Assembly (NCBI GenBank): GCA_965229355.1
Contig: OZ245869.1
Location: 2,078,318 to 2,142,317, forward strand
Length of the DNA: 64,000 nt
DNA from: Rhodospirillaceae bacterium
GTDB lineage: Bacteria > Pseudomonadota > Alphaproteobacteria > Rhodospirillales > Rhodospirillaceae
Direction: 5' to 3'
Of the stretch, positions 4,271 through 33,283 are shown in pieces. The notes under the pieces are model-generated. The model worked only from the letters and a program-made list of their open reading frames with translations, was not told where the DNA came from and ran no database searches. The position numbers were made by a program, and so were the translations under genes. Each line of letters opens with the position of its first letter. Position 1 is the first letter of the stretch.

Positions 4271-4296
4271 ACAGTCCAAACGTCATCAATAGGTTA

Positions 4297-8428: not shown

Positions 8429-8436
8429 GGCCAGCC

Positions 8437-9306: not shown

Positions 9307-9316
9307 ACGTCCGAGT

Positions 9317-11029
9317 ATGAACTTTGTAGTCCACCCCGTTATCGCGCAACTACAGCCTTTTCCCGATGAGTCATTATTAGGATTTGGCCTGCGGATTGCC
9401 GAGGCCAATTGGGCACCGACTGGCCTCCGCGCTATTGCGATGGCCATTCACACTGCCAAAGAATCACGCAGTGATTACTTGTCCCTTGTGTCGAATATTG
9501 ACGCGCTGAGCCAGCTTACCCAGATCCCAGTGGAAGACCTCCAAGCCATGGCGTTTTGGCATTTGCCGCGGGACGAGTGGCCGGCCAGTTTTAATATCGG
9601 CCGTCACGGGGGCACCGTTTCGACCACTTCACTATATCGCGGCTTCTCTCGCATCTGCGTTGAATGCTTGAAGGAGCAACCTTACACGCGGCGCCTATGG
9701 GATTTGAAGTTCTACCAAGCCTGTCACATTCATCACTGCAAGCTTATCTCTAACTGTCATGGTTGCTCGAGATCGCTGAGCTGGCATCGTCCAACGCTTA
9801 TGCGTTGTAAAGCGTGCCATGCTGATATTCGAGGGGCGTGTTCACAGGCGGCGACCCAGGCAGAAGTGAACTTTGCGGGGTTCATCGCGGGTTGTGTCAA
9901 AGGGAGTGGTTCTGATAGCGCTCAACATGTTAGCATCGCGCCGGAATTTAAAGACATCTCGATTGGCGATCTCGTGAATGTGCTTGGGTTTCTAGCTGGC
10001 TATGCCAAGGACGGTTGTCCCATTGGCGTGCGCGGCATGGTGAGTTCAGGGAACGAAGAACTTCTCGAAAACTTGCGGGAGTGCGAGCAATTATTCGCGG
10101 ATTGGCCTAACGCGCTTTACCGAATGATTGACGCGAATATGCATTCCAGTAACGACTGGTTGCCTCCAGAGAAGAAATTTCCTCACATCTATCGAGCTAT
10201 TGCCAGGACGCACAAGTCAGCCTACCCGTTGACGCGTTTGCGGCCTCTTATGGTGCGTTATCTTGCTGAGCGCCACGGATCATATGCTGCGCAATGCGGG
10301 TCGCGGCATGGTGCAATTGAAGAGGCGGCACGCATAGCTGGATACATTACTCTTGGAGAGGCAGCCAGGTTACAGCAAACGAGTGTTGGGCTTATCAAGC
10401 GCGCCGCCCCAATAGTGGGCGTCACCATTCATCACGGTGATCGCATGGCTACCGCCCGGATCTTAAAGGAGGATCTAAAGTTACTGAGCGAAGAGCTTTG
10501 GTTTTCTCGCAGATCAAGGCTGCCAACAGGAGCGTATGGCGACTGGGATGCTTTGCCTAAAGTGGAGCCCGCTGAATGTCAGGCATCAACGAAAGTGCGC
10601 CAATCTGACCCAATAATTCCTCGTCAGCCGCAGCCACACCGCGATGTAATTCGTCGCGAGCGCGTAGACATGAAGGGCATTGGTCTTTCGCTTGGCGTGT
10701 CCCCAGCGACCGCCGCGCGTTTGCGACGTGATAGCCTGTTCGGTGCTTATAATCCCAACCGGCCGACCACGATCGCTGACGTGCTCGGATACATGGATGC
10801 GCTGGAACGGGGCTGTACGCCGTCTGAAGACCCACTGTTGGTCCCGTTAATGATATTGGCAGAGAAAAACTCGGTTTACTGGCGGGTGGGGCTTCGGACA
10901 GCGCTTAATCTTATAAAATCCGGCAAGCTTCTCGTACGGGGCGTGGACACGCGGGCCACCGGCTTAAATCGCATACTTCTGTCCGACGCGGACTTGCGTC
11001 AGCTTAACGATGACTGTGAGCGAGGATAA
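9317..11029 (+). CDS. tniQ: TniQ/TnsD-like target-selection protein
   Basis: The N-terminus (PFPDESLLGFGLRIAEANW) is typical of TniQ, and a Cys/His cluster (CVECL...CHIHHC...CHGC...C..C) follows. 570 aa from the ATG at 9317. Confidence 0.75.
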   Translation: MNFVVHPVIAQLQPFPDESLLGFGLRIAEANWAPTGLRAIAMAIHTAKESRSDYLSLVSNIDALSQLTQIPVEDLQAMAFWHLPRDEWPASFNIGRHGGTVSTTSLYRGFSRICVECLKEQPYTRRLWDLKFYQACHIHHCKLISNCHGCSRSLSWHRPTLMRCKACHADIRGACSQAATQAEVNFAGFIAGCVKGSGSDSAQHVSIAPEFKDISIGDLVNVLGFLAGYAKDGCPIGVRGMVSSGNEELLENLRECEQLFADWPNALYRMIDANMHSSNDWLPPEKKFPHIYRAIARTHKSAYPLTRLRPLMVRYLAERHGSYAAQCGSRHGAIEEAARIAGYITLGEAARLQQTSVGLIKRAAPIVGVTIHHGDRMATARILKEDLKLLSEELWFSRRSRLPTGAYGDWDALPKVEPAECQASTKVRQSDPIIPRQPQPHRDVIRRERVDMKGIGLSLGVSPATAARLRRDSLFGAYNPNRPTTIADVLGYMDALERGCTPSEDPLLVPLMILAEKNSVYWRVGLRTALNLIKSGKLLVRGVDTRATGLNRILLSDADLRQLNDDCERG

Positions 11030-11489: not shown

Positions 11490-11963
11490 ATGAACCACGA
11501 GTCCATCGAAATGCTTACGGGGTACATAGACGCACTCAGCTTCACGACGATTGCTCGTGTGCCTGATCCGCCGGTAACTTTTGGGATACCGACCGCAGAG
11601 CTTCGAAAAAAACTCACAATCGACGTGACTGAGTTTAACCTCAAAAAGAACCGCTATCGCTTCAAAGGCCAAATTAAAAACTGGACGTTCTGGACATTCA
11701 CTGACAAAGCCGCGCCCGAGCAAACCAGCATCCACTTGACAGGTACGCTTACGAGTCAAAGGGGTCTCCATCCATATCTGACGACCAGCCAGGTGCTGGA
11801 AATTGCGAGCGACTTAAGTGGTGTGATCACCAAGAGTGGAAGCCTCTACGAGCTTTCGAATGAGCGCGGCGAGCTCAATAACGACGAGTTCGTTCACCTG
11901 ATCTGTGTCCTTAACTCATGGGGACTTGGGGCGGATTTAAATTTGCCACCCCTTCATTACTAG
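11490..11963 (+). CDS. hypothetical protein, paralog of 4394..4873
   Basis: 157 aa. By eye it is about 40-45% identical to the 4394 product over the C-terminal 75 or so residues. Confidence 0.6.
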   Translation: MNHESIEMLTGYIDALSFTTIARVPDPPVTFGIPTAELRKKLTIDVTEFNLKKNRYRFKGQIKNWTFWTFTDKAAPEQTSIHLTGTLTSQRGLHPYLTTSQVLEIASDLSGVITKSGSLYELSNERGELNNDEFVHLICVLNSWGLGADLNLPPLHY

Positions 11964-12864: not shown

Positions 12865-13425
12865 ATGATAGGCGAGAGCGACTATTGGAAAAAACCTCTC
12901 CTCACGGGGGCGAGGTTCATCCGGAAACATATGGATGTCGAAGATATTACCCCTTCGCAGTTCGCCCGGATTGAACGCGAAATTCTCATCGGCTTCTACT
13001 CGATTCGAAAATTGTTCGAGGCGACGGCAAAAGTCAGTCCTGAAACGCGCGATCTGAAAATCCAGCTAAAATTCTATCCGAAGCGTGCTGATCAGCCGCC
13101 TGTGGACTGGTTCAATCGGGACAAGTTCTGGGAGCTATACGACCTTGAAGTCGCTGGGGCTGAGCAGCGCGATCTGCTCTACGCCGCGCACCGGATGGTC
13201 CACAGCTTCGTCTTGCTGCTGTCGGGCGACGACGCCGGACATGGCGCATTTTTCACGAGTGATCGCGACAAGGAAGCACGCTTAAATTTCGTAAGCACGA
13301 GTGAGATTGTTCGCGTTTTTGAAGCCGTTGGAACCGACTATCCATCAGGCCTCAACGCATGGCGCGATGAGGCGACCGGCGAAATGAAGTGGGTGGTGCC
13401 GCCGTCGCCAGAGAGTGTGCGCTAG
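12865..13425 (+). CDS. hypothetical protein (gene 1 of a coupled three-gene operon)
   Basis: 186 aa. Its TAG stop overlaps the GTG start of the next gene (TAGTG). Confidence 0.55.
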   Translation: MIGESDYWKKPLLTGARFIRKHMDVEDITPSQFARIEREILIGFYSIRKLFEATAKVSPETRDLKIQLKFYPKRADQPPVDWFNRDKFWELYDLEVAGAEQRDLLYAAHRMVHSFVLLLSGDDAGHGAFFTSDRDKEARLNFVSTSEIVRVFEAVGTDYPSGLNAWRDEATGEMKWVVPPSPESVR

Positions 13426-13793
13426 TGAGAACGTCGATTGAGCTGGAAATCGCTGGGGTCTCCTTATCCTATGCCAAAAATTATATCGGGGTTGATTTTG
13501 GCTTCCTGTTTCAGGATGGCGACGAGACGCGACGTAGATCAGACGCCATCGACTATGAGTATTATGAGGATCACCCGGATGAGATCGCAGACCTAGAAGA
13601 GAGCGAGGCCGCTTTTGCCAGACCTCTTTCGCGCGTGCTGCCGCGTCTATCGCTCCTCGGATCCACGATACAAACCGCGCGTGCTGAATATGAGGCGGTG
13701 ATCGCGGAAGCTCTAGAAATGAGTTCTGGCGAAGGGCGCGAACTTGGCCTGCTGTCGTTCGATGAATTTTGCTTGCTTGCCGCTATCCGTTGA
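13425..13793 (+). CDS. hypothetical acidic protein (gene 2 of the coupled operon)
   Basis: 122 aa from GTG 13425. Its stop overlaps the next start (TGATG). The ORF-track start at 13389 would overlap gene 1. Confidence 0.5.
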   Translation: MRTSIELEIAGVSLSYAKNYIGVDFGFLFQDGDETRRRSDAIDYEYYEDHPDEIADLEESEAAFARPLSRVLPRLSLLGSTIQTARAEYEAVIAEALEMSSGEGRELGLLSFDEFCLLAAIR

Positions 13794-14689
13794 TGAGCCT
13801 CAGGGGCGGAGAGGAGTTTCACGACAAAGAAAAAGCTAAGGGCCGGCTTGCTGTAGAAGGTGACTTCGCGCGTCTGCCGTGGACCGATAACTCGGACAGC
13901 TTCTGGTCAGAGCGAAGCTACTTCGGCGCGAAGCTCACGTTGCTGAGTGCAGAGTCTATGCTTCAGGTGTTTAGCCTCAACGCCGAAAACCTGACGGCCG
14001 AGGTGACGTGGGAGTTCGGCACTCTCGTCAGTAGCGGTTGGGCCAGCCGCTCTGAGTTTCAGCCCGGCGCAAGGCGCGTTCAAAAAGTGTTGATCGCGAC
14101 CGAGGGAGCGTCCGACGCTCGGATTATCAAGCGTGCGCTTGAGGTCCTCCGCCCTGACGTCGCCGACTTTTTCAACTTTGTTGATGTGGATGAGCGCCAT
14201 CACTTTTGGGGTACCGGCAATCTCGTAAAATTTGCTGAAGGGCTTCTGCGCATCGACATCCAGAATATGGTTCTGTTCGTGTTTGATAATGACGCAGAGG
14301 GTGTTGATGCTTATCGCAAACTCGAAAATCTGAATCTCCCCGGCAACATGCGCTCGATGCTCTTGCCGAACCTAGACGAGTTTCGCAATTTTCGAGCGCT
14401 TGGGCCCGAAGGCGTTAGCATTTCCGACATAAACGGACGAGCCGCAGCAATCGAGTGCTATCTCGATCTTGAATTGCCGAACAATGCACCCGCGCAAGTG
14501 ATCTGGAGCAACTACAAGAAGGATATCGACGCGTGGCACGGAGCCTTGGAGTTCAAGGATTCCTATCAGCGTCATTTCTACGACCAGACTGACGGTACGC
14601 TTCGGAGTGGGCGTTATGACACTACGAAGCTCTTGAAAATGTTGGACGCAGTAATAGCGCAGGCATCTCTGGTGTCGCCTGTGGTGTAG
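13793..14689 (+). CDS. Toprim-domain protein (OLD/AriB/DUF4435-like nuclease candidate)
   Basis: VLIATEGASDARI (Toprim Glu) followed about 70 aa later by LFVFDNDAEG (DxD). The N-terminal 100 or so residues are unassigned. Confidence 0.6.
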   Translation: MSLRGGEEFHDKEKAKGRLAVEGDFARLPWTDNSDSFWSERSYFGAKLTLLSAESMLQVFSLNAENLTAEVTWEFGTLVSSGWASRSEFQPGARRVQKVLIATEGASDARIIKRALEVLRPDVADFFNFVDVDERHHFWGTGNLVKFAEGLLRIDIQNMVLFVFDNDAEGVDAYRKLENLNLPGNMRSMLLPNLDEFRNFRALGPEGVSISDINGRAAAIECYLDLELPNNAPAQVIWSNYKKDIDAWHGALEFKDSYQRHFYDQTDGTLRSGRYDTTKLLKMLDAVIAQASLVSPVV

Positions 14690-16132: not shown

Positions 16133-17161
16133 ATGATTGTTCGAGAGTTAACCATTCCAGGCCTTCCGGTCGCGGTACATCGCGCCATCCAGGCGAGTGG
16201 TCAACAACTCCACATCTCGAACTTGCCGGCGCTGGCGCACAGCTTATTACCAACCATAACTTCGAGACTGGATGCAAATGTGCAAGCCCAGTTGAAGCAA
16301 TCGATAAATGCCGCTGTTCCAAAGCTGGTCGTGAAGAATGCTTTCGCGATCGTCGACAATGCGCTCGGCCGTACGCCTGATGGCTTCATCAAACATCCAA
16401 GCGATCCGACGTGGTTGACGGCCGCAGTCTCCGCTTTGACGGTAATGAGCATAGCAGGATTGCAAGCGACCTCATTCGCTGGCGAAAATAAAGGTGAATT
16501 GTTCGTGCACTTGGTTCCGGAGAACACATCCGCGACCGGCCGAAACGCCGAGCAATCAACAGCATTTATGACGGGACATACGGACGCATTGCCGTTTCCA
16601 TTTCCGGCTGAATTTGATCCAGCCAACGTAAGTCTACCACCACCAGCTCCAGATTTCGTCGTTTTGGCGGCACTTCGCAATCCAGGTGACGTTCCTACAA
16701 CTGTGTCGCCTCTCGATGTTTTGCGCACGCACATGGCTGATGATCCTTCGTTCAATACGAAGGTTTCAGATGCACTCTTCCAACGGCACTTCGGTTTTAA
16801 GAGCCAGAGCAGTTGGGACATGGAGTATTATCTGCCGTCTGCACCGATTTTGATGGACGACCAACGCGGGACACTGATCCGGTTCAGTATCGGCGGTACT
16901 CAAGTTCTGCCGGGCGCGCCGGAAGAGGCGGTGACAGCGTACCATCTGCTTTCCGAGGCTTTGAAGCAAAATAGGCAGCAAGTTGTCTTGAAGCCGGGCG
17001 ATATCATGTTGATCAACAACAGGACTAGCCTGCACGGTCGCGAACGGGTGAGCTATTTGCCAGAGGGTAACTCTCGGTGGTTGCTGCGAACATATGGATA
17101 TTACTCATCCACACCACGTCGCATCATAAGTCCATATTGGACGAAGGCCGAGCCTTGTTAA
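16133..17161 (+). CDS. Fe(II)/2-oxoglutarate-dependent oxygenase, clavaminate-synthase/TauD-like
   Basis: The facial triad candidates are GHTDALPF (HxD) and NNRTSLHGRE (distal His). RWLLRTY follows, as in VioC/AsnO-type amino-acid hydroxylases. Confidence 0.65.
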   Translation: MIVRELTIPGLPVAVHRAIQASGQQLHISNLPALAHSLLPTITSRLDANVQAQLKQSINAAVPKLVVKNAFAIVDNALGRTPDGFIKHPSDPTWLTAAVSALTVMSIAGLQATSFAGENKGELFVHLVPENTSATGRNAEQSTAFMTGHTDALPFPFPAEFDPANVSLPPPAPDFVVLAALRNPGDVPTTVSPLDVLRTHMADDPSFNTKVSDALFQRHFGFKSQSSWDMEYYLPSAPILMDDQRGTLIRFSIGGTQVLPGAPEEAVTAYHLLSEALKQNRQQVVLKPGDIMLINNRTSLHGRERVSYLPEGNSRWLLRTYGYYSSTPRRIISPYWTKAEPC

Positions 17162-17679
17162 TCAGAGAAAAGAGATAGCAACCTAATCGTCATCGCTTGC
17201 ATGCTGACTTCGTAAAGTGAGGCCAACTTCCTCAGGTCTTCCTCACTGGTCATATCGATGTCCTGAGCGGCGACATCTTGCTTTAGCCACGCCGCCGGCA
17301 TGAGAAGATTAGCTGCAAACGCATTGGCCTCGCGTTCATCGAGGTGTTCCGCGGTCGTGGAGCGTATATCGCGAAGGTTGACACGAAACTCTTGGTCAAC
17401 GTGAACCTCTTCGCCGTCATGAAGCATCAAGTGCCCCAACTCGTGCGCAATCGTGAAGCGCTGACGCAAGTCATTGTGCAGAGAATTCACGACGATGACA
17501 TTGCCTGACTCAGCACGAAACAGAATTCCCGAAATGTCCTTTTCGAGTTCCATGCGCTTGATGGCGACATTATTCGCTTCAGCAATTGCCTCAACGTCGA
17601 CCGGAGGCTTGATCTGATCGGCAAGCAGTTCATCAACGCGTCGGCGAATACGGGTGTAACCAATCCGTACTCGGATCAC
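17158..17679 (-). CDS. ImmA/IrrE-family zinc metallopeptidase (CapP-like)
   Basis: HEXXH motif IAHELGHLMLH. It overlaps the upstream XRE gene by 4 nt. Confidence 0.8.
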   Translation of the reverse strand: MIRVRIGYTRIRRRVDELLADQIKPPVDVEAIAEANNVAIKRMELEKDISGILFRAESGNVIVVNSLHNDLRQRFTIAHELGHLMLHDGEEVHVDQEFRVNLRDIRSTTAEHLDEREANAFAANLLMPAAWLKQDVAAQDIDMTSEEDLRKLASLYEVSMQAMTIRLLSLFSD

Positions 17680-17978
17680 GACCCGCTCGCTTGTTCTGAC
17701 TTAATCGTGTCGATTACCTTCAGCACGTCCTCACGTCCCGCAAGTTTGTCAGCTGCTTTTTCTTCTCGCGCTTCGACCAACTGCGACGGATTTGCGTTCA
17801 GCGCTTTTGCGATGTCGACCATTTGATGGAGCAGCACGCGTTGGCGGCCGCTTTCAATATTTGTGATTGATGCGCGAGACAGAGACACGCGATTCGCGAG
17901 TTCTTCTTGGGTGATTTTTCGATTTTCGCGCAGCTCCTTCACCCGATTTCCGAATAGTTTATAAACGCGTTTTTCCAT
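17676..17978 (-). CDS. XRE-family helix-turn-helix repressor (CapH-like)
   Basis: 100 aa with the helix-turn-helix region ITQEELANRVSLSRASITNIESGRQ. It is divergent from the ubiquitin-like operon. Confidence 0.8.
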   Translation of the reverse strand: MEKRVYKLFGNRVKELRENRKITQEELANRVSLSRASITNIESGRQRVLLHQMVDIAKALNANPSQLVEAREEKAADKLAGREDVLKVIDTIKSEQASGS

Positions 17979-18058
17979 TGTGGCTCCCGGGGGTAGGCTT
18001 TTAAAGTTCTGATTTTAAATGATAATCTGGTTTGACAAGCCTTTCAATAAGGCTTTTA

Positions 18059-18103
18059 TTACAAACAGTTTGTAAAAGCGTTAATGAGGCAATGTTTGTA
18101 ATA
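18059..18103. promoter_or_regulatory. operator/promoter region of the Bil-like operon
   Basis: Perfect palindrome TTACAAAC-A-GTTTGTAA (18059-18075), then ATGTTTGTAATA (18092-18103) overlapping a TTGACA box (18104-18109). Confidence 0.55.
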
Positions 18104-18165
18104 TTGACATTTCGTTTTCGTTTGCATACGGTCACTCCATCGCAACTTACCGATAGGAGCTCCAA

Positions 18166-18657
18166 ATGGAAAAGCCGGATAGCAAGGAATTGGTGGAAAT
18201 CTTGTTCGCCCAAGAAGGCCATCGTGATCCGAAGGTGGATAAAGTTGGCTCTAAAGTCACGGTCAGTGACTTCTTGAAACACGTCACCCAGGGTGACCCC
18301 GCCGAGTTTGAGTTTTCGAGCGAAGATGCCAACGAACCGATCGGAAACGACCTCCTGATCGGTGATGTTGCCCGTCGCGGTGGCCAAGCTGTGTTCCACG
18401 TTTCGCGTCGCGGCCTCATCGCAGTTCATGTGACGTTCAACGGCCGCGTTATCAGCAAAGACTTCCGCCCGAACGTGACGATGAACACGATTGTGATTTG
18501 GGCAATGCGTGAACTCCGTCTCGACGGCGTGCCATCGGACTACCAACTCAAATACCGCGACCAGCTTTTGCCCCCGGGTGATCACTTGGGGCAAATCACG
18601 CATGGCGCCAAGGAAATCAAGCTCACTCTTGTCATGAAGATTAAGCCGCAGGGGTAA
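18166..18657 (+). CDS. bilA: tandem ubiquitin-like (beta-grasp) protein ending in Gly (BilA-like)
   Basis: 163 aa, enough for two beta-grasp-sized halves. The C-terminus is ...MKIKPQG followed directly by the stop codon. AGGAG lies 7 nt before the ATG, and the E2-like gene starts 3 nt downstream. Confidence 0.75.
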   Translation: MEKPDSKELVEILFAQEGHRDPKVDKVGSKVTVSDFLKHVTQGDPAEFEFSSEDANEPIGNDLLIGDVARRGGQAVFHVSRRGLIAVHVTFNGRVISKDFRPNVTMNTIVIWAMRELRLDGVPSDYQLKYRDQLLPPGDHLGQITHGAKEIKLTLVMKIKPQG

Positions 18658-18660
18658 ATC

Positions 18661-19173
18661 ATGAGCTTGGACGAAACTGCATTGAACGCCTCGATCGCGA
18701 GTTCGAGTTTTCGGATCGGGGTGGCGCGTAGCAAATGGCGGCACGTGAAAACTGATTTCCCTCACGTGTACTTCCAAATTGCTCTGCCGAAAAATAAACC
18801 GGGTCCAGAATGGGTTCTCATTCGGGTCAAGTGCGATGGCTTTCCAGCCATCGCGCCTACTGCTCAGCTTTGGGACGCCCGCACAAACGCGGCACTGCCT
18901 GACAACCTCCGCCCCTTTGGTGCTACGGGGTTGCTGATCCAGTTCTCAGCCTGGGGAGCATGTCTCTATCACCCGATTGACCGTGTCGCCCGCGACCATT
19001 GGCCTGGCAAATTCCAGGAACTGGTGTGGTTGCCAGGCTCATCCATCGCTGCATTTTTGGAAGTGGTTCATGATCTCTGCAATGATTCGGCGTATGTCCG
19101 CTGCGATGCGCCCGCAGCAGCGGCTGAAATGCAACAAGTTCCTCTGGAAGAAATTGCTGCTCAAGCTGCGTGA
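18661..19173 (+). CDS. bilB: E2-like ubiquitin-conjugating protein (BilB-like)
   Basis: 170 aa. The candidate active site is FSAWGACLYHPIDR. It sits between the ubiquitin-like and JAB genes. Confidence 0.65.
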   Translation: MSLDETALNASIASSSFRIGVARSKWRHVKTDFPHVYFQIALPKNKPGPEWVLIRVKCDGFPAIAPTAQLWDARTNAALPDNLRPFGATGLLIQFSAWGACLYHPIDRVARDHWPGKFQELVWLPGSSIAAFLEVVHDLCNDSAYVRCDAPAAAAEMQQVPLEEIAAQAA

Positions 19174-19576
19174 ACGCGGGCAAGGGCGCCAGGAAAGCGG
19201 TGCTTTTTTGCTGGGTCGCGAGATTGATGGCGTTCGGGTCATTGAAGATTTCATTCTTTATGACGACGTCGATCCGAACGCCTTGCGCGGTATCATCATG
19301 TTTGATGGCTCCAAAATGGATAAGGTTTGGCAACGCTGCGAAGCCACTGGACTACAAGTGGTTGCGGATGTGCACACTCATCCATACGGATATCAGCAAA
19401 GCCACATCGATCAAGCGAACCCGATGATTCCACAATCAGGGCACATCGCGATGATCGTTCCCAATTTTGCTCAGCAGTTGTTCGGCCCCGAGCAAGTCGG
19501 CATTTTCGAGTACCGGGGTAAGGGGCGCTGGAAAGATCACAGCGCCACGCGGTATCTCGCATTGTCATGGTGGTAA
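19106..19576 (+). CDS. bilC: JAB/JAMM metallo-isopeptidase (BilC-like); start uncertain
   Basis: JAMM motif ESGAFLLG ... DVHTHPYGYQQSHIDQ. In-frame starts at 19094, 19106 or 19154 all overlap the E2 gene's 3' end. Confidence 0.75.
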   Translation: MRPQQRLKCNKFLWKKLLLKLRERGQGRQESGAFLLGREIDGVRVIEDFILYDDVDPNALRGIIMFDGSKMDKVWQRCEATGLQVVADVHTHPYGYQQSHIDQANPMIPQSGHIAMIVPNFAQQLFGPEQVGIFEYRGKGRWKDHSATRYLALSWW

Positions 19577-19577
19577 A

Positions 19578-20885
19578 ATGAATCATCCCCTCTTCAGCGA
19601 CCGCCCTGCTCAAGCGCTCATGGCGCGAGACCAGGATCTCGACTACGCATCCGCGCGCCTTAAGTTGGAAACGGCATCCGTGGTATTGACCGTGGATGAT
19701 GAGATGTCGGACTGGCATCAGGCAGCGCTGATTGCGTTCGTCGCCTGCGGATCGCGGATGTTCCAGGGCGGCGTATTTTTACAAGATTTTCCTGACGCGG
19801 CCACGCGCGTTGGCCATCAGCAGCGCCTCTCGATTACTCGTGTACTGATCCGAGGTGGCGCCAGGCCAGGGCAGCGCCCACCTGGGGCTCTTCGTATTCA
19901 CTTTGGATCTAAGGGAAGTGCCGACCTTTACGTGCAGTGTGAAGGTTGGACCGCGCATGTCGGACCCATTCCCATCGAAACGACAGGTCACTCAAACAGT
20001 AACGTGGTCGTCGGCGCGTTCGCGGCGGCGCTCGGCGCGACGGCTGCATTTCGTCAACTGATCTTCAATGACGTTCGAGCCTCTAGATTTCAGCAGTCGC
20101 ACAAGTTGATGACCTCTGATGAAGTGGATCAAAGTGGAACAATTACAGCCTTACCAAAGCATCTGTGGTTGCTAGGGGCTGGCAACTTGGGCCAGGCGGT
20201 GCTGATGATTCTCGGTCTGTTGCCGTGGAAGGATTGCGAAGACTTCCACTTGCACATCAACGACGGGGACATCGTTGGGCCAGAAAATGTAATGGTCCAA
20301 GTGCTCACACAATCGAATTGGATTGGCTCCAAAAAAGCGCGTGTTGTTGCGAGTTGGGCGGAGGCACAGGGCTTTAAAACGAGTATCGATGAGCGCTTAT
20401 TTGGCTCATATACCCATCCCATGCCATACGAGCCACGCGTAGCTCTGGTATGCGTCGATAACGTGGACGCACGACGCGCTGCCTCCATGGCCGGGTTTGA
20501 CTTGGTGATTGATGGCGGTCTTGGCGCCACAGCTGCTGATCTGTTTGATTTACGTGTTCATGCGTTCCCGAGTGACCTTGATATTGACCGCATCTGGCCA
20601 TTGGACACTACCTCCGCTGTCAGCGAACTTCCTGCCAACCTGAAAGCTATGGTTGGACAAGGGCAACTTGATGACTGCGGCGCAACAACGATTGCGGGCA
20701 AAAGCGTGGGCGTACCTTCGACCGCAATGGCGTGCGCGGCGTTGCAAGTCGCACAGTTATTGTCAGTTCTAATGACGGGACGTTGCGCCAAGACGGTTGA
20801 TGCAAGCCTTGCCGACATAAAGCGGGCACACGCTGTTATGATGGCCGACGATACGCGCGTTCATTTGGCGCGGTTGAGTTGTTAG
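19578..20885 (+). CDS. bilD: E1-like adenylating enzyme, ThiF/MoeB fold (BilD-like)
   Basis: Rossmann motif LLGAGNLGQAVLMILG. 435 aa from the ATG at 19578, 1 nt after the JAB stop codon. Confidence 0.75.
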   Translation: MNHPLFSDRPAQALMARDQDLDYASARLKLETASVVLTVDDEMSDWHQAALIAFVACGSRMFQGGVFLQDFPDAATRVGHQQRLSITRVLIRGGARPGQRPPGALRIHFGSKGSADLYVQCEGWTAHVGPIPIETTGHSNSNVVVGAFAAALGATAAFRQLIFNDVRASRFQQSHKLMTSDEVDQSGTITALPKHLWLLGAGNLGQAVLMILGLLPWKDCEDFHLHINDGDIVGPENVMVQVLTQSNWIGSKKARVVASWAEAQGFKTSIDERLFGSYTHPMPYEPRVALVCVDNVDARRAASMAGFDLVIDGGLGATAADLFDLRVHAFPSDLDIDRIWPLDTTSAVSELPANLKAMVGQGQLDDCGATTIAGKSVGVPSTAMACAALQVAQLLSVLMTGRCAKTVDASLADIKRAHAVMMADDTRVHLARLSC

Positions 20886-22567
20886 CGCGGATATCTGCAG
20901 CGGCCACGGTACTCGCCGTCTGACTCGAAGAAGATGCACTCAAGGTCAAATTCTTTGGCAGGCTCAATGATGTCGTCTTCTACGTGCGCGCGTGCCTCGG
21001 CCTCATTACGGTGCACGACAATGTGAGGTAGATGCGCCATGAGCAAGTCACTGCTCGGATTGCTGCTGCTTGTGGCGTTCAGCACCATGTGACCAATGAC
21101 ATTTCTTGCTTGACCGTCCTCGGGCAGCGAGTTCTTGCGCAAGATAAGCTCCGTGACCCAAACGAAGTGCGGTAACGCTCGATCAATGAGGCCCGCTTTA
21201 ACGTCATCGCTCAAATTTGTCTCTGCGATGTGGCGGCGATATTTGCCGGCGGTCGTCAGATAAGTTCGTTGAACCAATTCGCCGGCAGCAAATAAATCCA
21301 AGAAAGCATTAATGAAGGGCAGGATGTGTGCCTTCTTCTCTTGGATCCTTGCAATCAGCTCCGGGTCATTGTTGGTGGCCAATTTTTCAAGGTAATCACG
21401 AACCACCAAGTTTGCGCGGTCTGCACTGATTAACACGCGGTTCGGTAACGCGACAAACATGTGGGACACTGCTTGGTCCACAGTCAGAATTTTACCGTGG
21501 TCATTGAGCAGTCGGTCTTTTGGCAAGTGCTCGATGTCTTTTTCTGTCAGAGGCATATAGCGGTACGGACCACGCTGATCATCATGAACGATCAATGCTC
21601 GCACAAAGCAATCATAGGAACTGCCCTCGCGGACGGCGCCACCACGATCTTCGATATATCCTACCGCCGTTATTGCATGTTCTATGTCGTCCAGCGCGAG
21701 TACGACACCCAAGCCCCCATCGATGTAGCGCAAGATTGTTTCAGCGGCCTCTGGTGACGGAGCCGCAATTTTCGCCGCCTCCAATGCTGGTCCAGATTTC
21801 AATCGCGCTGATTCGAGGCGCTCTTGATCGCGGAACAAGTAATACAAAGGTTGGTGGCCCATACCACGCAGCGCTCTGATGATATGCAGTGGATTGAGGC
21901 CAGCTGACCCCGCCGGTAGTGATTGGCTTAAGGCTACATCCGTCGGTGTCGTGGCGTGCTGCGTGATTTCGGTGACGGAGTGCCATGTCGCTCGGGGATA
22001 ACGAAGATGGATCGGTCGTGCTGCCATCCAGATTGCTGCCTGCGCACAGGCGCCGACGCGCGTATCTTGCTGGATAAACGGTGCAACGTCCGGAATCGAG
22101 AATGTGTGGCCGCGCAGCTGTGCTGAAATTCCAGCGCGCGCTCCAGCGCGAACGACGTAACTGTCCGTACTAGCAGGGTACGGCAGATTAGTTCGCCCGA
22201 TTGGGCCCTGGCCGATGGGGCGCACGACGAGAAATCCAAGATATTCTGTTTTCTTAAACTCTGCTGATTGCTCAGCAAGTGGCTTGCCGACGATCGCGCT
22301 CACATCGGCCTTGAAGAAGTGCACACGTTTCGTAAACCGCGGGTACTCGTGAAATGCGGTAGCGTAGAAGCTCCAATAATCAGTCGAGTAATCGAGATCG
22401 GTGTATGGATATTCGACGATGGCGTAAGTGGCGCCAATGTCTTTTAGGTGCTCAACAATCGCTGACGCGCAAACGCTTGAGCCTCCTTCCTTAAGGCCGA
22501 CAAACAGTGCGCGAATGATGTTAAAGCCGTCGGGATCTAGAGCGATCCCCTTGATTTCGATGCGCAT
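20882..22567 (-). CDS. 561-aa hypothetical protein with a putative papain-like cysteine-peptidase core
   Basis: FIQQDTRVGACAQAAIWMA (Gln then Cys) and about 120 aa later DDIEHAITAVGY...HDD (His then Asp) resemble a C39/papain-fold arrangement. Its stop codon overlaps the bilD stop. Confidence 0.45.
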   Translation of the reverse strand: MRIEIKGIALDPDGFNIIRALFVGLKEGGSSVCASAIVEHLKDIGATYAIVEYPYTDLDYSTDYWSFYATAFHEYPRFTKRVHFFKADVSAIVGKPLAEQSAEFKKTEYLGFLVVRPIGQGPIGRTNLPYPASTDSYVVRAGARAGISAQLRGHTFSIPDVAPFIQQDTRVGACAQAAIWMAARPIHLRYPRATWHSVTEITQHATTPTDVALSQSLPAGSAGLNPLHIIRALRGMGHQPLYYLFRDQERLESARLKSGPALEAAKIAAPSPEAAETILRYIDGGLGVVLALDDIEHAITAVGYIEDRGGAVREGSSYDCFVRALIVHDDQRGPYRYMPLTEKDIEHLPKDRLLNDHGKILTVDQAVSHMFVALPNRVLISADRANLVVRDYLEKLATNNDPELIARIQEKKAHILPFINAFLDLFAAGELVQRTYLTTAGKYRRHIAETNLSDDVKAGLIDRALPHFVWVTELILRKNSLPEDGQARNVIGHMVLNATSSSNPSSDLLMAHLPHIVVHRNEAEARAHVEDDIIEPAKEFDLECIFFESDGEYRGRCRYPR

Positions 22568-22632
22568 ACGCTTCTCAGTGGGGCGGTATTTTCCCTACCT
22601 TAAGGCGCAAACTGCGGAATCTCTAGTGGCTA

Positions 22633-22857
22633 TCAGCGGATAGCAAAAATCGACGCTGTGGCGATCACCAAGCTCGCGCGCTTTTCTTTGCGCGCAATTT
22701 CTTTCAGGCCATTTTCCGTTACGTAACCAAACGTGCCAGAAGAACTGAGCTTCACGGTGTTGTCCGCGAGCTCGGTGCGTTTAGGGTTCAGCGTTTGAAC
22801 CTTTTTTTGATCGGGCATTTGCGACGCATTTTCAGTGTTGGTTTTGTCGGGGCACAT
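22633..22857 (-). CDS. possible small tail-anchored protein (weak)
   Basis: 74-aa ORF upstream of 20882..22567 on the same strand. It has a hydrophobic C-terminus (ASLVIATASIFAI) and no clear RBS. Confidence 0.25.
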   Translation of the reverse strand: MCPDKTNTENASQMPDQKKVQTLNPKRTELADNTVKLSSSGTFGYVTENGLKEIARKEKRASLVIATASIFAIR

Positions 22858-23360: not shown

Positions 23361-23768
23361 CTATGCCGCGGCCGCTGACAGCGCTTCGATGATGCGGCAG
23401 TCCTTGATATTGCCACCTTTACACTGCCTGATGACACGCTTCAGTTCGTGAGCTAAGCGCGAAAGGTCTGCAACTTTCTGTTCCACATCGGCCAGATGCG
23501 TTCGAGCGATATCATCGACTGTGCAGCAGTCGTTGGTACCCGTTTCGGTCATGTTGAGCAGATCGCGTATTTGTTGAAGTGTGAAGCCGAGTGACCGTGC
23601 TCTCCGCACGAATGACAGCCGCTCCAAATGCTGCTGACCGTAGGCTCTGTAGTTACCTTTGGTGCGCGGCGGCGCCGGCAATATTCCCATGCCTTCATAG
23701 TATCTGATCGTCACAACCTTTGTGTCTGTGCGCTTGGCGAGTTCACCAATCGTAAAAGGAGCGTCCAT
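23361..23768 (-). CDS. MerR-family heavy-metal-responsive regulator (ZntR/CadR-like)
   Basis: The N-terminal helix-turn-helix is FTIGELAKRTDTKVVTIRYYEGMGIL. C-terminal Cys residues (NDCCTV, RQCKGGNIKDC) could bind metal. Confidence 0.85.
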   Translation of the reverse strand: MDAPFTIGELAKRTDTKVVTIRYYEGMGILPAPPRTKGNYRAYGQQHLERLSFVRRARSLGFTLQQIRDLLNMTETGTNDCCTVDDIARTHLADVEQKVADLSRLAHELKRVIRQCKGGNIKDCRIIEALSAAAA

Positions 23769-23771
23769 GGC

Positions 23772-23804
23772 TTGACCCTATAGTTCCTATAGACCTCATA
23801 TTAC
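23772..23804 (+). promoter_or_regulatory. MerR-type promoter with a 19-bp spacer
   Basis: TTGACC (23772-23777), dyad CTATAG-TTC-CTATAG (23778-23792), CATATT (23797-23802). It lies between merR-like (-) and the CDF gene (+). Confidence 0.7.
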
Positions 23805-23833
23805 CCGTAAATACGCAAAATCACGAGGTCCCC

Positions 23834-24475
23834 ATGGGCGCAAGTTGTTGCGGCGGTACGCCGCCCAAGATCGAAATAAAGCACGACGAAAAATACCGCC
23901 GCATACTTTGGATCGTGCTGGCTATCAACGCAGCCATGTTTGTCGCTGAGATCACAGCAGGGATGCTTGCGGGCTCCGTATCGTTGCAGGCAGACGCTCT
24001 CGACTTTCTCGGCGACGCAGCAAATTACGGGATCAGCTTGTTCGTGATTGGAATGTCGCTGCGGTATCGCGCAACGGCGGCGCTCATCAAAGGCGTATCG
24101 ATGGGAGTATTTGGGTTCTGGGTCACAGGCTCGACGTTGGTCCAGCTTGCCAACGGTGCCGTTCCACAAGCTGAGACGATGGGTGTCGTGGGCGCGGTCG
24201 CATTGTTGGCGAACGTCGCGTGTTTTGGCCTTTTGTGGGCCTACCGCAACGGGGATTCAAATATGCGTTCAGTATGGATTTGCTCGCGAAACGATGCACT
24301 CGGCAATGTCGCGGTTCTATTCGCAGCAGCCGGTGTGTTTGGCACTCAACAAGGATGGCCAGATATTCTGGTCGCCGGAGTGATGGCTGCGTTAGCGCTG
24401 CAAGGTGCGTGGATTACTATTCGTGCTGCGACGATGGAATTAAAAGAGCCGGAGGCCCAGGCCTCCGGCTCTTAA
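23834..24475 (+). CDS. cation-diffusion-facilitator transporter, short form (membrane domain only)
   Basis: AEITAGMLAGSVSLQADALDFLGD matches the CDF TM2 signature. At 213 aa it has no cytoplasmic C-terminal domain. Confidence 0.8.
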   Translation: MGASCCGGTPPKIEIKHDEKYRRILWIVLAINAAMFVAEITAGMLAGSVSLQADALDFLGDAANYGISLFVIGMSLRYRATAALIKGVSMGVFGFWVTGSTLVQLANGAVPQAETMGVVGAVALLANVACFGLLWAYRNGDSNMRSVWICSRNDALGNVAVLFAAAGVFGTQQGWPDILVAGVMAALALQGAWITIRAATMELKEPEAQASGS

Positions 24476-24487
24476 TTCCGTTTTACC

Positions 24488-24592
24488 TTAGCAGGGGCAA
24501 ATCGGGCAGATCATCGACAACGTGTTCACGACGTCGGCCATTGCTGTGCCGGCCATCAGAACGCCTGTCAAAGCGAGAGCTAATACTTTCAT
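24488..24592 (-). CDS. 34-aa secreted Cys-rich peptide (not in the ORF track)
   Basis: MKVLALALTGVLMAGTAMA/DVVNTLSMICPICPC. A strong SD (AAGGGAGG) ends about 6 nt before the ATG. It lies downstream of the HXXEE gene on the same strand. Confidence 0.5.
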   Translation of the reverse strand: MKVLALALTGVLMAGTAMADVVNTLSMICPICPC

Positions 24593-24690
24593 AGAAACCT
24601 CCCTTTGTAGTTTGAGCCTGCTCACAATACGCGAAAATATGACCGTATGGTCAGTTTTCTAAAGGGGACCGCAGTTCGGTCGCTTTTGGC

Positions 24691-25254
24691 TTAGCTGGCG
24701 GCCCAGCAGGGCATTTTAAGGCGAATGAGACCCCACCAAGCCGCCGGTACCAGGGGCACAACAGTCGCCATACCAGGGAAGTAGCCGTAGGGGCTGCCGG
24801 TAAAAAGCGGGAATGCGAAATGAGCCAATTCGATGACGCCCATGGACGTGAAGAAAGTCCAGGCTAGAAACCAACCGAACTCACGACCTCGCTTCATCAA
24901 GTACGGGATCAGCAGCCACGCGCCTGACAAAGCGTAAAGGGCAAAAACCATCGGCGAACTGGTGTCCGGCATTGGCACGCCAGTAATTTTTGAAAGAGCA
25001 GGGAAGAAGTCCATGTAGCGCTCTTCGATTTTGTGAAGTGCGAAGAATAGAAGCGTAATCCAATACGCCGTTCGAATGCGCTCGAAGCGTGCGTGTGCAG
25101 GGACAACAACCCACAAAATGAATCCGCCAACAAAGCCCAGCGTGAAGAGCAGTGCTGGCAAAAGTCCAAGCATCAAGTAACCAAGAACAACGACTGCGCC
25201 AGTGTAAGTAGCTGCGCCAGCAACTGTGAAAGATCGCTTCACGGCAATGACCAA
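24691..25254 (-). CDS. HXXEE-domain membrane protein
   Basis: Polytopic, 187 aa, with FALHKIEERYMDFF (HXXEE motif). Confidence 0.7.
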   Translation of the reverse strand: MVIAVKRSFTVAGAATYTGAVVVLGYLMLGLLPALLFTLGFVGGFILWVVVPAHARFERIRTAYWITLLFFALHKIEERYMDFFPALSKITGVPMPDTSSPMVFALYALSGAWLLIPYLMKRGREFGWFLAWTFFTSMGVIELAHFAFPLFTGSPYGYFPGMATVVPLVPAAWWGLIRLKMPCWAAS

Positions 25255-25584
25255 GGGTTATGTTTCACGCCACTCACAGTTAATCCGGCCGTGAGATTTA
25301 AATACAACGGATGAGGATGCCTGGGGTTCACACTGCGTCCAAAGTAACTGTTTGAGCCAGGCGTCAACATAGGAAGCGGCACGAAAAATTGTTATTTGTA
25401 TAAGATGGCACTGGCTGATCAGTTGCGCCCGCGCCCGCGCATGAAAGTTAACGAGTGACAAAGCGATGAGCGCTCAACGGTTTACGATACATGAGGCCAC
25501 ATCACTCGATGCGTCCAGTGTCCGAAACACGGTGTTACAAACCCGCGCTTGCGCTTTTTTTCGAAGCAGCCCTATATAAACGCT

Positions 25585-25938
25585 ATGAAACGCTTTTTCG
25601 CCATCATTGCGATTTTGCTTGCCGTTGGGTTCCTCAACGGCGGCAATGCTGTTTCTGCTCATCAAATGAATAGTGTTGTCGTTGAAATCGAAGCGACGAA
25701 CGATCAATTTTTCGTCGCAGCTGACAGCGAATCGCATCACGAAGATGAGAAAGGTTGCTGCTGGGATAGTTTGTGCTTCAGCGCAAATCATTGCCATCAT
25801 GCTGGTGGCTCAGGCGCCTTTCTGAGCTTTGCCGACACCGTGACGGGACCGGTCACTTCAAGTGCGTTTGAAGCAACATCGGACAGCGTCCGCGCGCTCG
25901 CACTTACTTATCTCCTTATAGATCCTCCTAGAGCCTAA
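25585..25938 (+). CDS. small secreted His/Cys-rich protein (CzcI-like position)
   Basis: Signal peptide MKRFFAIIAILLAVGFLNGGNAVSA, then SESHHEDEKGCCWDSLCFSANHCHH. It lies immediately upstream of czcC-like. Confidence 0.6.
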   Translation: MKRFFAIIAILLAVGFLNGGNAVSAHQMNSVVVEIEATNDQFFVAADSESHHEDEKGCCWDSLCFSANHCHHAGGSGAFLSFADTVTGPVTSSAFEATSDSVRALALTYLLIDPPRA

Positions 25939-26020
25939 TCGCATCTCTGCGCCGCAATAGCGGCGCGAACTCCGATGGTGCGACTTGTTGCACCGAGTTT
26001 AATGCGACGAAAGGCTACCT

Positions 26021-27325
26021 ATGTTTACGCGATTATTTTTTGGCGCGCTGCTGAGCGCGACAGCATGCACGGCTGTACTGCCGGCTTTTGCTCAAGTTCA
26101 AGGTCAATCCCAATCTGAGTTGGGTCTGTTACAGCCCGGCGCCCCTGTCACGCTGCGCGATGCGATCAATCGCGTATTAGAAGTGAACCCGAAATTAGCG
26201 GGCCAGAAATTCGCTTTAGCCGCCGCCGACGCACGCCGAAATCAGGCGGCACTGCGTCCCGCTTATGAAGTGGGTGTCGAGATCGAAGATATCTTCGGCA
26301 CAGACAAACTCTCAACGTTCAACGATTCCCAGATAACGCTTCAGCTCAGCACGGTCATTGAGATGGGTGGCAAGCGTGGCAACCGTATTGGTGCGGCAGA
26401 CCGCGAGCGAGACCTGCTCCTCACCGAACAAGATGCTGAGAAACTCGATACCATTGCCGAAGTAACGCGCCGCTATATCCGTCTGGTCGCCGCACAGCGT
26501 GAGGTCACGCTTGCTGCCCGATCCTACGAGCTTGCGTCAAATACACGAAAAGTCGTGGGCCAGCGGGTTTCAGCCGGCCGCGCCGCTGCCGCTGAAGATC
26601 GCAATGCTGACATCGCGCTCGCACGTGCACAAATTCAACGCGCCCGTGCAGATAGTGCCGTCACTCAAGCATCGCAAAGCCTTGCTGCGATGTGGGGCGG
26701 CGATAGCGTGGGTAAAATAGAGACATCTGCGGAACTGTTTACGCTGCCAGTGCTCGTCGCAGAACCTGCTCTCGGAACGCTGCTCGAGCAGAACCCAAAT
26801 CTTGTGCGGTTTGCTTCGGAACGTCGCGTCCAAGAAGCGAAAATTCGATTAGCCGAAAGCCAAGCGGCGCCTGACTTAACGGTCGGTGCCGGTGTGCGTC
26901 GCGTTCAAAGCAATCGGAGCAACGCTTTCGTCATGTCGGTCTCCGTGCCACTCGGCACCGGCAATCGTGCGGCCCCGTACGCTGCCGAAGCGCGCAGTAA
27001 CCTTCAAGTCGTTGACTTCAAGGAAAAGGCCGCGCGGGCGGAGCTGTCCGCAACCCTGTCAGCTTTCTACCAAGAAGCTCAGCAGCGTCAGGCGGAGGTG
27101 GAGATCCTGCGCCAGAGCGCAGTGCCACAGGCGGAAAGTGCCGCTGACCTTACGCGCAATGGGTTCGGCCAAGGGCGGTTCTCATTCCTCGAGCTTCTAA
27201 ACTCGCAGCAGCAACTCGTCGATGTGCAGCGCGCAGCCATCGATGCGGCCGTCGCGTACCACAACGCTGTCATTGAAATCGAACGTTTGACCGCGCGCGC
27301 TGTCTCCCAAGCCGGCGCTCAGTAG
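26021..27325 (+). CDS. czcC: outer-membrane efflux protein (CzcC/TolC family)
   Basis: 434 aa with a signal peptide and a two-repeat OEP-like sequence. It is the first gene of the C-B-A order. Confidence 0.8.
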   Translation: MFTRLFFGALLSATACTAVLPAFAQVQGQSQSELGLLQPGAPVTLRDAINRVLEVNPKLAGQKFALAAADARRNQAALRPAYEVGVEIEDIFGTDKLSTFNDSQITLQLSTVIEMGGKRGNRIGAADRERDLLLTEQDAEKLDTIAEVTRRYIRLVAAQREVTLAARSYELASNTRKVVGQRVSAGRAAAAEDRNADIALARAQIQRARADSAVTQASQSLAAMWGGDSVGKIETSAELFTLPVLVAEPALGTLLEQNPNLVRFASERRVQEAKIRLAESQAAPDLTVGAGVRRVQSNRSNAFVMSVSVPLGTGNRAAPYAAEARSNLQVVDFKEKAARAELSATLSAFYQEAQQRQAEVEILRQSAVPQAESAADLTRNGFGQGRFSFLELLNSQQQLVDVQRAAIDAAVAYHNAVIEIERLTARAVSQAGAQ

Positions 27326-27334
27326 GAAACAAAA

Positions 27335-31533
<4,199 letters not shown>

Positions 31534-31551
31534 GATCGGAAAGGAAAACCA

Positions 31552-31983: not shown

Positions 31984-32007
31984 CTCACAAGCAGAACCGC
32001 TTGTGAG
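31984..32007 (+). terminator. stem-loop after the czc operon (weak terminator candidate)
   Basis: CTCACAAGC-agaacc-GCTTGTGAG. A second hairpin CCCCCAA...TTGGGGG follows. There is no clear U-tract. Confidence 0.3.
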
Positions 32008-32093
32008 TAGGGAAGTCTCCGGCACTCCCCAAAACCCCCAAAACCTAGTGTTGGGGGCTTCCCTGGCCCTATTTGCAAAAGGTGAGACATCTC

Positions 32094-32600: not shown

Positions 32601-32603
32601 CGT

Positions 32604-33215: not shown

Positions 33216-33283
33216 GTGCGCTCGTAAGGTGGATCGGCCAGTAGGCTGCTAACTCATTAGGCTTAACGTTTCGGTATTTTGAT

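Follow-up and report, generated by a model that had tools for sequence, protein, structure and literature searches.

A predicted type I Bil operon with a shifted BilB cysteine and a conserved convergent gene pair in a Rhodospirillaceae bacterium

Of all bacterial systems, those encoded by bacterial ISG15-like (Bil) operons offer the clearest parallel to the antiviral conjugation of ubiquitin and ISG15 in eukaryotes, and the BilABCD system of Collimonas sp. OK412 is reportedly the one described by Millman in 2022. As currently described, Bil systems consist of four genes and include no E3. Here we analyze an operon of this kind at positions 18166-20885 of a 64,000-nucleotide (nt) stretch of DNA from a Rhodospirillaceae bacterium (contig OZ245869.1, positions 2,078,318 to 2,142,317 of the forward strand), hereafter the window. 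The source contig is circular, of metagenomic origin and 4.44 Mb in length.

In the type I Bil system of Collimonas, the ubiquitin-like protein (Ubl) BilA comprises 163 amino acids (aa) in two domains and ends at Gly163, the E1 and E2 cysteines are C385 and C113, respectively, and the target of conjugation is the central tail fibre of the phage (10.1101/2023.09.04.556158). Type II Bil, formerly termed CEHH/6C and represented by Ensifer aridi, is marked by a C/E/H/H signature in its E2 and by a BilA that extends up to nine residues past the conserved glycine, by Ala98 only in E. aridi, where BilA contains one beta-grasp domain (PMC10557695). Bub operons (6E/DUF6527) are characterized by Ubl-E2, JAB-E1 or E2-E1 fusions, an E1 that lacks a catalytic cysteine, and a BubE gene, whose product is a beta-sandwich serine protease that acts as a second peptidase to strip conjugates (PMC11601596). 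We consider it quite likely that the window operon is a type I Bil system of a distinct sub-clade, with its own regulatory switch, a shifted cysteine in BilB and a convergently transcribed gene pair. The operon core is of a known kind, and the conserved pair is undescribed in the Bil and Bub literature that we found.

The core consists of four tightly packed genes:

18166-18657, plus strand: bilA, ATG start, 163 aa, with AGGAG 7 nt before the ATG and a C-terminus ...MKIKPQG followed by TAA
18661-19173, plus strand: bilB, 170 aa, E2-like conjugating enzyme, separated from bilA by 3 nt
19094-19576 (alternative starts at 19070 and 19106), plus strand: bilC, JAMM/JAB isopeptidase
19578-20885, plus strand: bilD, 435-aa E1 composed of BilD_N and a ThiF-type adenylation domain, separated from bilC by 1 nt

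This arrangement, with its 3-nt gap, its 1-nt gap and its single overlap, lies at the coordinates given in a first-pass annotation made from the DNA letters, and the motifs quoted there (GACLYHP, HTHPYGYQQSHID and LLGAGNLGQ) are all present in the predicted proteins. The overlap depends on the start of bilC, the frame of which is an open reading frame (ORF) at 18977-19576 with candidate ATGs at 19070, 19094 and 19106, such that 68-104 nt are shared with bilB; the public gene call on the source contig uses 19070. Each of the four PADLOC profiles, a check that the annotation had proposed, matches its own protein over the full length, with E values of 5.6e-25 (BilA), 6e-43 (BilB), 1.3e-63 (BilC) and 1.8e-92 (BilD). 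In Pfam, BilB matches PF24702 (DUF7665/BilB-like, 3.9e-29), the Prok-JAB match of BilC and the ThiF match of BilD (2.2e-05) are both below threshold, and bilD carries PF27312 (BilD_N) in the annotation precomputed for its contig. The full-length PADLOC matches together with PF24702 and PF27312 place the locus far beyond chance. The bilA-B-C-D order is kept across 80 related loci. Judged by these profiles, the four genes are a genuine Bil conjugation operon of the antiphage type, and the Bil placement proposed in the annotation is borne out by profile, fold and comparative tests alike. The annotation covered the four genes correctly and left out a regulator pair and a convergent two-gene partner; it is these additions, along with a relocated cysteine in BilB, and above all the convergent pair, that make the locus worth testing beyond its earlier description.

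A word-indexed homolog search with BilA returned only BilA itself, and an exhaustive HMMER search of 1.84 billion cluster representatives retrieved 60 relatives. The column of Gly163 is invariant in 34 of 34 homologs and terminal in 31 of them; in the other three, one to five residues follow it, as would be the case in pro-forms before processing. An AlphaFold model based on the homolog alignment (predicted local distance difference test score, pLDDT, 95.1; predicted template modelling score, pTM, 0.87) contains two successive beta-grasp (beta-beta-alpha-beta...beta) units, and a Foldseek search of the PDB with this model returns linear di-ubiquitin, ISG15 and the tandem Ubl of OASL as top matches over ~157 of the 163 residues. 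Both features that had been anticipated for this protein, namely two beta-grasp domains and an exposed C-terminal glycine, are present in the model and in the sequence. The annotation had counted a first protein devoid of this fold as a refutation, and the model does not bear that out.

The predicted catalytic residues of the other two enzymes that had been named from their motifs are complete. In BilC, numbered from the 19094 start, the JAMM set consists of Glu34, His94-Thr-His96-Pro, Ser103 and Asp106, and Glu34, His94, His96, Ser103 and Asp106 are invariant in 81 of 81 BilC sequences; its match in the PDB is E. aridi BilC (8tyx_B, 6.3e-06). In BilD, the nucleotide loop Gly200-x-Gly202-x-Leu-Gly205-Gln, which forms part of LLGAGNLGQ, is invariant in an alignment of 38 sequences, as are Asp229, Lys253, Arg299 and a Cys367-Gly368 pair. 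Cys367 is the presumptive counterpart of Collimonas C385, and BilD_N together with the nucleotide loop agrees with the type I layout of an inactive domain at the N-terminus and an active GxGxxG adenylation domain. The BilD profile retrieves E. aridi BilD (8tyz_A, residues 5-267) first among PDB chains (3.4e-07), followed by the E1 enzymes for NEDD8, ubiquitin and ISG15, with E. coli ThiF behind them at 2e-3.

In a scan of 185,579 species, with one genome each, 458 relatives of BilD were detected, the best of them with only about 45% identity; over all searches, BilD is no more than about 45-47% identical to any relative. The closest in the scan are from Alphaproteobacteria, such as Phenylobacterium, Caulobacteraceae, Sphingomonas and Sphingopyxis. 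A megablast search of positions 17100-22600 against E. coli genome and plasmid collections yielded no near-identical DNA. The same cluster occurs in a second sample, on a contig with 2x coverage (locus L002, ENA ERZ25074273) that encodes a 100% identical BilA; there, BilC and BilD are shortened and the gene convergent to bilD is split, most likely due to errors of the low-coverage assembly.

The two-domain BilA with its terminal glycine, the lack of a CEHH pattern in BilB and the remote or absent similarity to the E. aridi proteins assign the operon, on predicted sequence and structural features, to the Collimonas-like type I. With the Collimonas system it shares the Ubl-E2-JAB-E1 order, a 163-aa BilA ending at Gly163, the E1 cysteine and the JAMM deubiquitinase; it differs from that system in an isoleucine at the LPC-DR column of BilB, with a cysteine five residues upstream, and in carrying a helix-turn-helix (HTH)/M78 gene pair and the convergent pair. 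We gauge a type II (CEHH/6C) or Bub (6E) operon in place of type I as very improbable. Although the Ubl-E2-deubiquitinase-E1 order and the cascade logic are common to type II Bil, and BilC and BilD are remote homologs of the E. aridi structures, phmmer comparisons of BilA, BilB and BilD with the E. aridi chains gave zero matches, single-sequence searches of the PDB gave nothing meaningful, and of the profiles built for these three proteins that of BilD alone reached its E. aridi counterpart, those of BilA and BilB being unmatched. The pattern C-x5-E-x-H-x4-H is absent from the window BilB, and BilA has two domains and no extension past its glycine, unlike the E. aridi protein. CapH/CapP-like regulators, which accompany 15% of type II Bil operons (PMC10557695) and 31% of Bub operons (PMC11601596), would also be in keeping with either alternative; we found no statement on their association with type I in the literature on Bil and Bub operons. 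The Bub cascade is similar to the present one in its Ubl-E2-E1 logic, its JAB peptidase, its frequent CapH/CapP genes and the occurrence of relatives of the convergent gene beside Bub-like operons, whereas the window operon has four separate genes without Ubl-E2 or JAB-E1 fusions, no DUF6527 match, and cysteines in both the E1 and the E2, of which Cys367 of the E1 is invariant. On these grounds, we exclude a Bub (6E) assignment. A pairing of a MoeB/ThiF enzyme with a MoaD/ThiS sulfur carrier for cofactor biosynthesis, a kind of case that the annotation had named among those that would overturn its reading, is scarcely credible. It could draw on the weak ThiF match of BilD, below the curated cut-off, and on the ability of the BilD profile to reach E. 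coli ThiF, but in structural comparisons BilD is nearest to its E. aridi namesake and to the E1s for NEDD8 and ubiquitin, ahead of ThiF; the modifier has 163 aa in a tandem ubiquitin fold, unlike an 80-aa sulfur carrier; and the operon encodes an E2-like protein and a JAMM peptidase. No thiamine or molybdopterin biosynthesis genes flank the locus in the window or any of the 80 related loci. We therefore exclude the sulfur-carrier reading.

The active site of BilB departs from that of mainstream type I enzymes. The annotation had identified an E2-like protein by the motif GACLYHP; the family assignment holds, and the cysteine that it quoted does not lie in the usual type I column. In the window protein, the motif reads Cys101-Leu-Tyr-His-Pro-Ile106-Asp-Arg...His113-Trp, and an alignment of 80 BilB sequences shows that Leu102, Tyr103, Pro105, Asp107, Arg108, His113 and Trp114 are invariant or nearly so. 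A cysteine occupies column 106 (ALYLPCDR) in 59 of the 80 sequences, column 101 in 36, and both columns (CLYLPCDR) in 15. All 18 non-redundant relatives in the clade of the window protein have Cys at 101 and none has it at 106; the motif is CLYHP[IVL]DR in 17 of them and CLYWPVDR in the remaining one (L029). In homologs from Burkholderiales (L015, L016 and L039), the LPC-DR cysteine is residue 111 or 112, and the sole other cysteine of the L015 protein is at residue 150. Given this numbering, which comes from the Burkholderiales homologs and not from the Collimonas sequence itself, C113 of Collimonas, which has been validated by experiment, almost certainly belongs to the LPC-DR column. The loss of the cysteine at column 106 and the clade-wide cysteine five residues upstream suggest that the nucleophile of the window BilB is most likely Cys101 and not the LPC-DR position. 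The presence of Ile106 in the cysteine column of mainstream type I counts against a functional type I cascade, which would stall at the E1 if Cys101 were unable to substitute. A single-sequence PDB search with BilB produced nothing meaningful, and an alignment of its profile with UBC9 has an E value of about 1, on which we do not rely. The relocation, with double-cysteine sequences as intermediates, offers a way into how bacterial E2 active sites are built.

The sequences and models show family membership, folds, conserved catalytic residues and conserved gene neighborhoods, whereas the chemistry and the phage target are carried over from the characterized Collimonas and Ensifer systems, by analogy with which we propose the following cascade. 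BilD would adenylate Gly163 of BilA and then hold BilA on Cys367 as a thioester; BilA would be handed on to a cysteine of BilB, for which we propose Cys101; and BilB would join BilA to a structural protein of the phage by way of lysine residues, a step that BilC could reverse.

Immediately downstream of the operon and on the opposite strand lies a pair of genes that faces bilD:

20882-22567, minus strand: p561, 561 aa, predicted to have a central C39/UfSP-like papain fold and two flanking domains
22633-22857, minus strand: 74-aa small protein, directly upstream of p561, ending ...IFAIR

The 3′ ends of p561 and bilD share the 4-nt sequence TTAG (20882-20885), inside which their stop codons overlap. 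The p561 protein has at least 299 relatives, all unnamed, and the window protein matches no Pfam, PADLOC or NCBIfam model and no PDB sequence. Its AlphaFold model (pLDDT 85.9, pTM 0.88) was compared with known structures using Foldseek, and the central domain was matched to the C39 peptidase of ComA with a probability of 1.0, an E value of 1.6e-3 and a template modelling (TM) score of 0.69 (normalised to the target), with weaker matches to ZUFSP, UfSP, the Josephin ubiquitin clippase and UCH enzymes. The Pfam family Peptidase_C39_2 (PF13529) is matched weakly by 20 of 40 relatives (best, 0.0042) and by the window protein not at all. Gln166, Gln167, Cys174, His297, Asp329 and Asp330 are invariant, in the Gln...Cys...His...Asp order of C39 (ComA, PCAT1), UfSP, ZUFSP and Josephin enzymes, which cleave after small C-terminal glycine motifs. 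Unlike C39 systems, p561 is accompanied by no ABC transporter, and it possesses two extra conserved domains; its Cys and His are separated by a long insertion, and its sequence similarity falls below the Pfam thresholds. Each flanking domain has invariant residues of its own and no Foldseek assignment. The model and the residue pattern together point weakly to a C39-like thiol peptidase fold. In searches of viral material, a single distant relative (23% identity) was found on viral contigs, and a viral fold library returned endolysin-type peptidase matches only.

The linkage of p561 to Bil operons was assessed from both directions. In the genome collection, the loci had been located via BilD and are hence unbiased with respect to p561; of the nine CLYHP-clade loci that could be evaluated, six carry p561, compared with 0 of 55 other Bil loci. 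The homologs concerned (L003, L004, L005, L007, L008 and L009) are 46-52% identical to the window protein and occupy the same convergent position. In the reverse scan, metagenomes were searched with a p561 profile, and 47 loci had sufficient downstream flank. Ten of these are convergent to bilD, which comprises all homologs with at least 46% identity, and 21 more face, likewise convergently, a ThiF-type E1 encoded in operons with Multi_ubiq and Prok-E2_E genes, such that p561 is adjacent to an E1 at 31 of the 47. The ThiF-linked operons encode Multi_ubiq, a Prok-E2_E without a conserved cysteine, JAB and E1 as a fusion or separately, and a divergent HTH protein, and on these sequence features they look like 6E/Bub-type cascades; the DUF6527 gene for BubE is not present in them. 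Convergent adjacency persists from 100% to about 33% identity and across three Ubl-E2-JAB-E1 operon families, and L083, L084, L085 and L090, at about 34% identity, show the same 4-nt overlap between 3′ ends. As the p561-linked operons carry a JAB gene, fused or separate, we rejected the idea that p561 stands in for a missing JAB.

The 74-aa protein has no Pfam match, and its gene was found by tblastn in the same position at nine related loci (3e-08 to 9e-04). Small ORFs precede relatives of p561 throughout the family; their products end in F-x-x-R where the locus is linked to Bil or Bub-like operons and in G-x-F-x-x-G in distant clades. The accounts of Bil and Bub operons that we consulted name four Bil genes only, and we found no description there of a pair composed of p561 and a small protein; nor is a thiol-peptidase partner listed by Iyer et al. 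(2006). Among the p561-linked Bub-like loci, the Multi_ubiq proteins of L083-L085, L088-L089 and L105-L129 end in ...NDDNS, with no terminal glycine, and the p561 pair occupies the place of BubE; several loci adjoin restriction-modification, Ku, UvrD or T5orf172 genes. The relatives at L111-L113 (33% identity) have as neighbors, in place of an E1, a P-loop NTPase of the KAP family and a 463-aa protein that lacks annotation, which indicates that the pair is not exclusive to Ubl operons.

We tentatively favor, at a little less than an even chance, a role of p561 as a thiol peptidase that acts on BilA conjugates or precursors and would thereby be a functional analog of BubE, a parallel in keeping with the lack of a BubE gene in those Bub-like operons to which p561 is linked; the two would be alike in function and not in fold, BubE being a beta-sandwich serine protease and p561 having a predicted thiol-peptidase fold. 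Several observations weigh against this reading: the Foldseek E values do not go below 1.6e-3, which is modest, the p561 gene lies on the strand opposite to the operon and so outside the bil transcript, loci L012-L014 belong to the same BilB clade and lack both p561 and the regulators, and 16 of the 47 p561-family loci have no E1 match nearby, one of them (L111) lying beside the KAP NTPase and others (L131, L137 and L143) beside unrelated genes. The pair could for these reasons be autonomous, that is, an independent two-gene module of a defence or toxin type, presumably with its own promoter, that has no part in BilA conjugation. We consider this unlikely, since adjacency, convergence and the 4-nt overlap at the stops persist to about 33% identity, the linkage spans three different Ubl-E2-JAB-E1 operon families, p561 is limited among Bil loci to the CLYHP clade, and thiol proteases specific for Ubls (UfSP, ZUFSP, Josephin and UCH) are among its nearest structural matches.

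Papain-fold enzymes with a Cys-His-Asp set, such as SidC and MavC of Legionella, catalyze ubiquitin ligation, and p561 could likewise be an E3-like cysteine ligase or transglutaminase that passes BilA from BilB to the target, with its flanking domains recognizing phage proteins. Such an activity would supply the E3 that Bil operons do not encode (PMC11601596), and it would agree with the invariant Cys-His-Asp set, the two extra conserved domains and the co-occurrence of p561 with exactly the BilB clade that lacks the usual cysteine column. We nevertheless judge it improbable, given that the nearest folds are those of peptidases and not ligases, that p561 also lies beside Bub-like operons whose E2 lacks a conserved cysteine, and that it is transcribed apart from the cascade. 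A broader proposal would accommodate either the peptidase or the ligase. It holds that the locus represents an undescribed Bil subtype in which the E2 nucleophile has moved from LPC-DR to C-LYHP and p561 and its ~70-aa partner (with an F-x-x-R or G end) are fifth and sixth components, p561 being a deconjugase that replaces BubE or an E3-like ligase, and the module serving at least three operon families, including oxyester Bub-like ones; we regard this as possible, if on balance doubtful. As a protein common to Bil and Bub-like operons, p561 might supply an element of control or specificity that has been missing from these systems, and if it has no role in them, the locus is one more Bil operon among hundreds.

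Upstream of bilA and divergent from it, the regulator pair and the intervening region are arranged as follows:

17158-17679, minus strand: zinc peptidase of the M78 (ImmA/IrrE/CapP-like) family, 173 aa, with HELGH (Peptidase_M78, 5.5e-23)
17676-17978, minus strand: XRE-family HTH repressor (CapH/ImmR-like), 100 aa (HTH_19/HTH_31/HTH_3, about 1e-12)
17979-18165, no strand: divergent control region, 187 bp between the HTH gene and bilA

The last 4 nt of the HTH gene, including its stop codon, lie within the M78 gene, and the position of the pair is conserved in the closest Bil loci. PADLOC identifies the HTH protein as CapH (6.6e-13) and the peptidase as CapP (7.8e-36), the latter match covering only positions 4-153 of 242. 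As in the CapH/CapP and ImmR/ImmA systems, an XRE-type HTH gene overlaps an M78 gene and is divergent from the immune operon, with which it shares a promoter region containing palindromic sites. CapP detects single-stranded DNA (ssDNA) by means of a GAF domain at its C-terminus together with a cysteine-switch loop, upon which CapH is cleaved (10.1101/2022.04.27.489752; 10.64898/2026.05.16.725639). The window peptidase differs in its length of 173 aa, its lack of a GAF domain and the absence of any Cys residue that could serve as a switch. The partial profile coverage and the lack of cysteines identify it, as far as its primary structure goes, as a short ImmA-like form for which the CapP trigger cannot be assumed. 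This speaks against a simple transfer of the ssDNA and cysteine-switch mechanism to the present locus, and a short ImmA-like switch in place of a full CapP raises the question of the activating signal.

The control region contains a perfect palindrome, TTACAAAC-a-GTTTGTAA, at 18059-18075 and a third half-site, TGTTTGTAATA, at 18093-18103, which abuts a TTGACA at 18104-18109. A second TTGACA is located at 18032-18037, and a promoter-like site on the minus strand (18047-18019) scores 10 of 12. We take the palindrome and the half-site as candidate operators and the TTGACA boxes as candidate promoters. By analogy with CapH/CapP and ImmR/ImmA, the pair probably forms an off-on switch in which the HTH repressor, bound to the TTACAAAC/GTTTGTAA operators, would keep the bil genes off until its cleavage by the M78 peptidase turns them on. 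More speculatively, the convergent overlap raises the idea of transcriptional interference, whereby induced bil transcription would collide with that of p561 and lower the p561 level.

The annotation had presented the operon as Tn7 cargo. A Tn7-like module is indeed present, in the same orientation as the bil genes:

5661-6359, plus strand: tnsA-like gene (Pfam Tn7_TnsA-like_N, 8.2e-09)
6356-8428, plus strand: rve-type transposase (tnsB), 690 aa (rve, 0.0082, weak)
8296-9306, plus strand: tniB/tnsC (TniB, 7.7e-21)
9179-11029, plus strand: tniQ/tnsD (TniQ, 7.3e-19)

The bil cluster lies 7 kb past tniQ, on the cargo side of the module (5661-11029), where HEPN/Toprim, exonuclease-like, metal-efflux and hipA genes are also found. 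The tnsA/tnsB/tniB/tniQ genes expected of a Tn7-like element are in place, and the ends of an enclosing element were not found: the window was searched for inverted repeats of the form TGT...ACA, arrays of TnsB sites and a 5-bp duplication by repeat finders, 11-mer matching, blastn-short, a combined scan for TGT/ACA with a 5-bp duplication, comparison of 20-mers with up to four mismatches, and Smith-Waterman alignment against candidate far ends with shuffled controls. It may be that the far end has degenerated, has diverged too much or lies beyond the window. A tRNA scan revealed no tRNA target, and the sister Bil loci have no Tn7 genes within 10 kb. With no element ends and with sister loci devoid of Tn7 genes, the status of the bil cluster as Tn7 cargo is plausible but unproven.

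Some features around the transposition module are of note in their own right. Two plus-strand ORFs, one to the left of tnsA (4394-4873) and one to the right of tniQ (11490-11963), are paralogous (38% identity, 3e-32), with no known domain in either. The former ORF and the next one (4887-5363) are enclosed by the two copies (4295-4311 and 5421-5437) of a 17-nt inverted repeat, TATTAATRGTRTCACGT, for which 0.14 matches would be expected by chance. Among the putative cargo, a protein with an N-terminal HEPN/Toprim assignment is encoded by adjacent ORFs (13425-13793 and 13793-14689), which may represent either one gene that has been split or two separate genes.

Farther to the right, a hipA toxin kinase gene (37460-38737, minus strand) is accompanied by an upstream gene and by a near-perfect 21-nt palindrome at 39071-39117, just past which, at 39-41 kb, the GC content falls to 46%. 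In this region (39415-39480), two exact direct repeats of TTGGCAATAATTAG, 31 bp apart, and a related TGGGCAATACCCAA are each followed by GTCCGAAA; from their sequences, the TTGGCAATAATTAG repeats look like iterated protein-binding sites, and they have no inverted partner near tnsA. Directly past the bil cluster, a heavy-metal resistance block (23361-35287) comprises merR-family, CDF, OEP/MFP/RND (Czc-like) and P-type ATPase genes, among which lie two ChuX/HutX-like genes. On the other side, the M78 peptidase gene is abutted by a gene for an Fe(II)/2-oxoglutarate dioxygenase (16133-17161, TauD/CsiD-like), the best NCBIfam matches of which are arginine and enduracididine beta-hydroxylases, far below the cut-offs. 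At a Bradyrhizobium locus (L086), a TauD-family gene is likewise found within a few kb of the bil genes.

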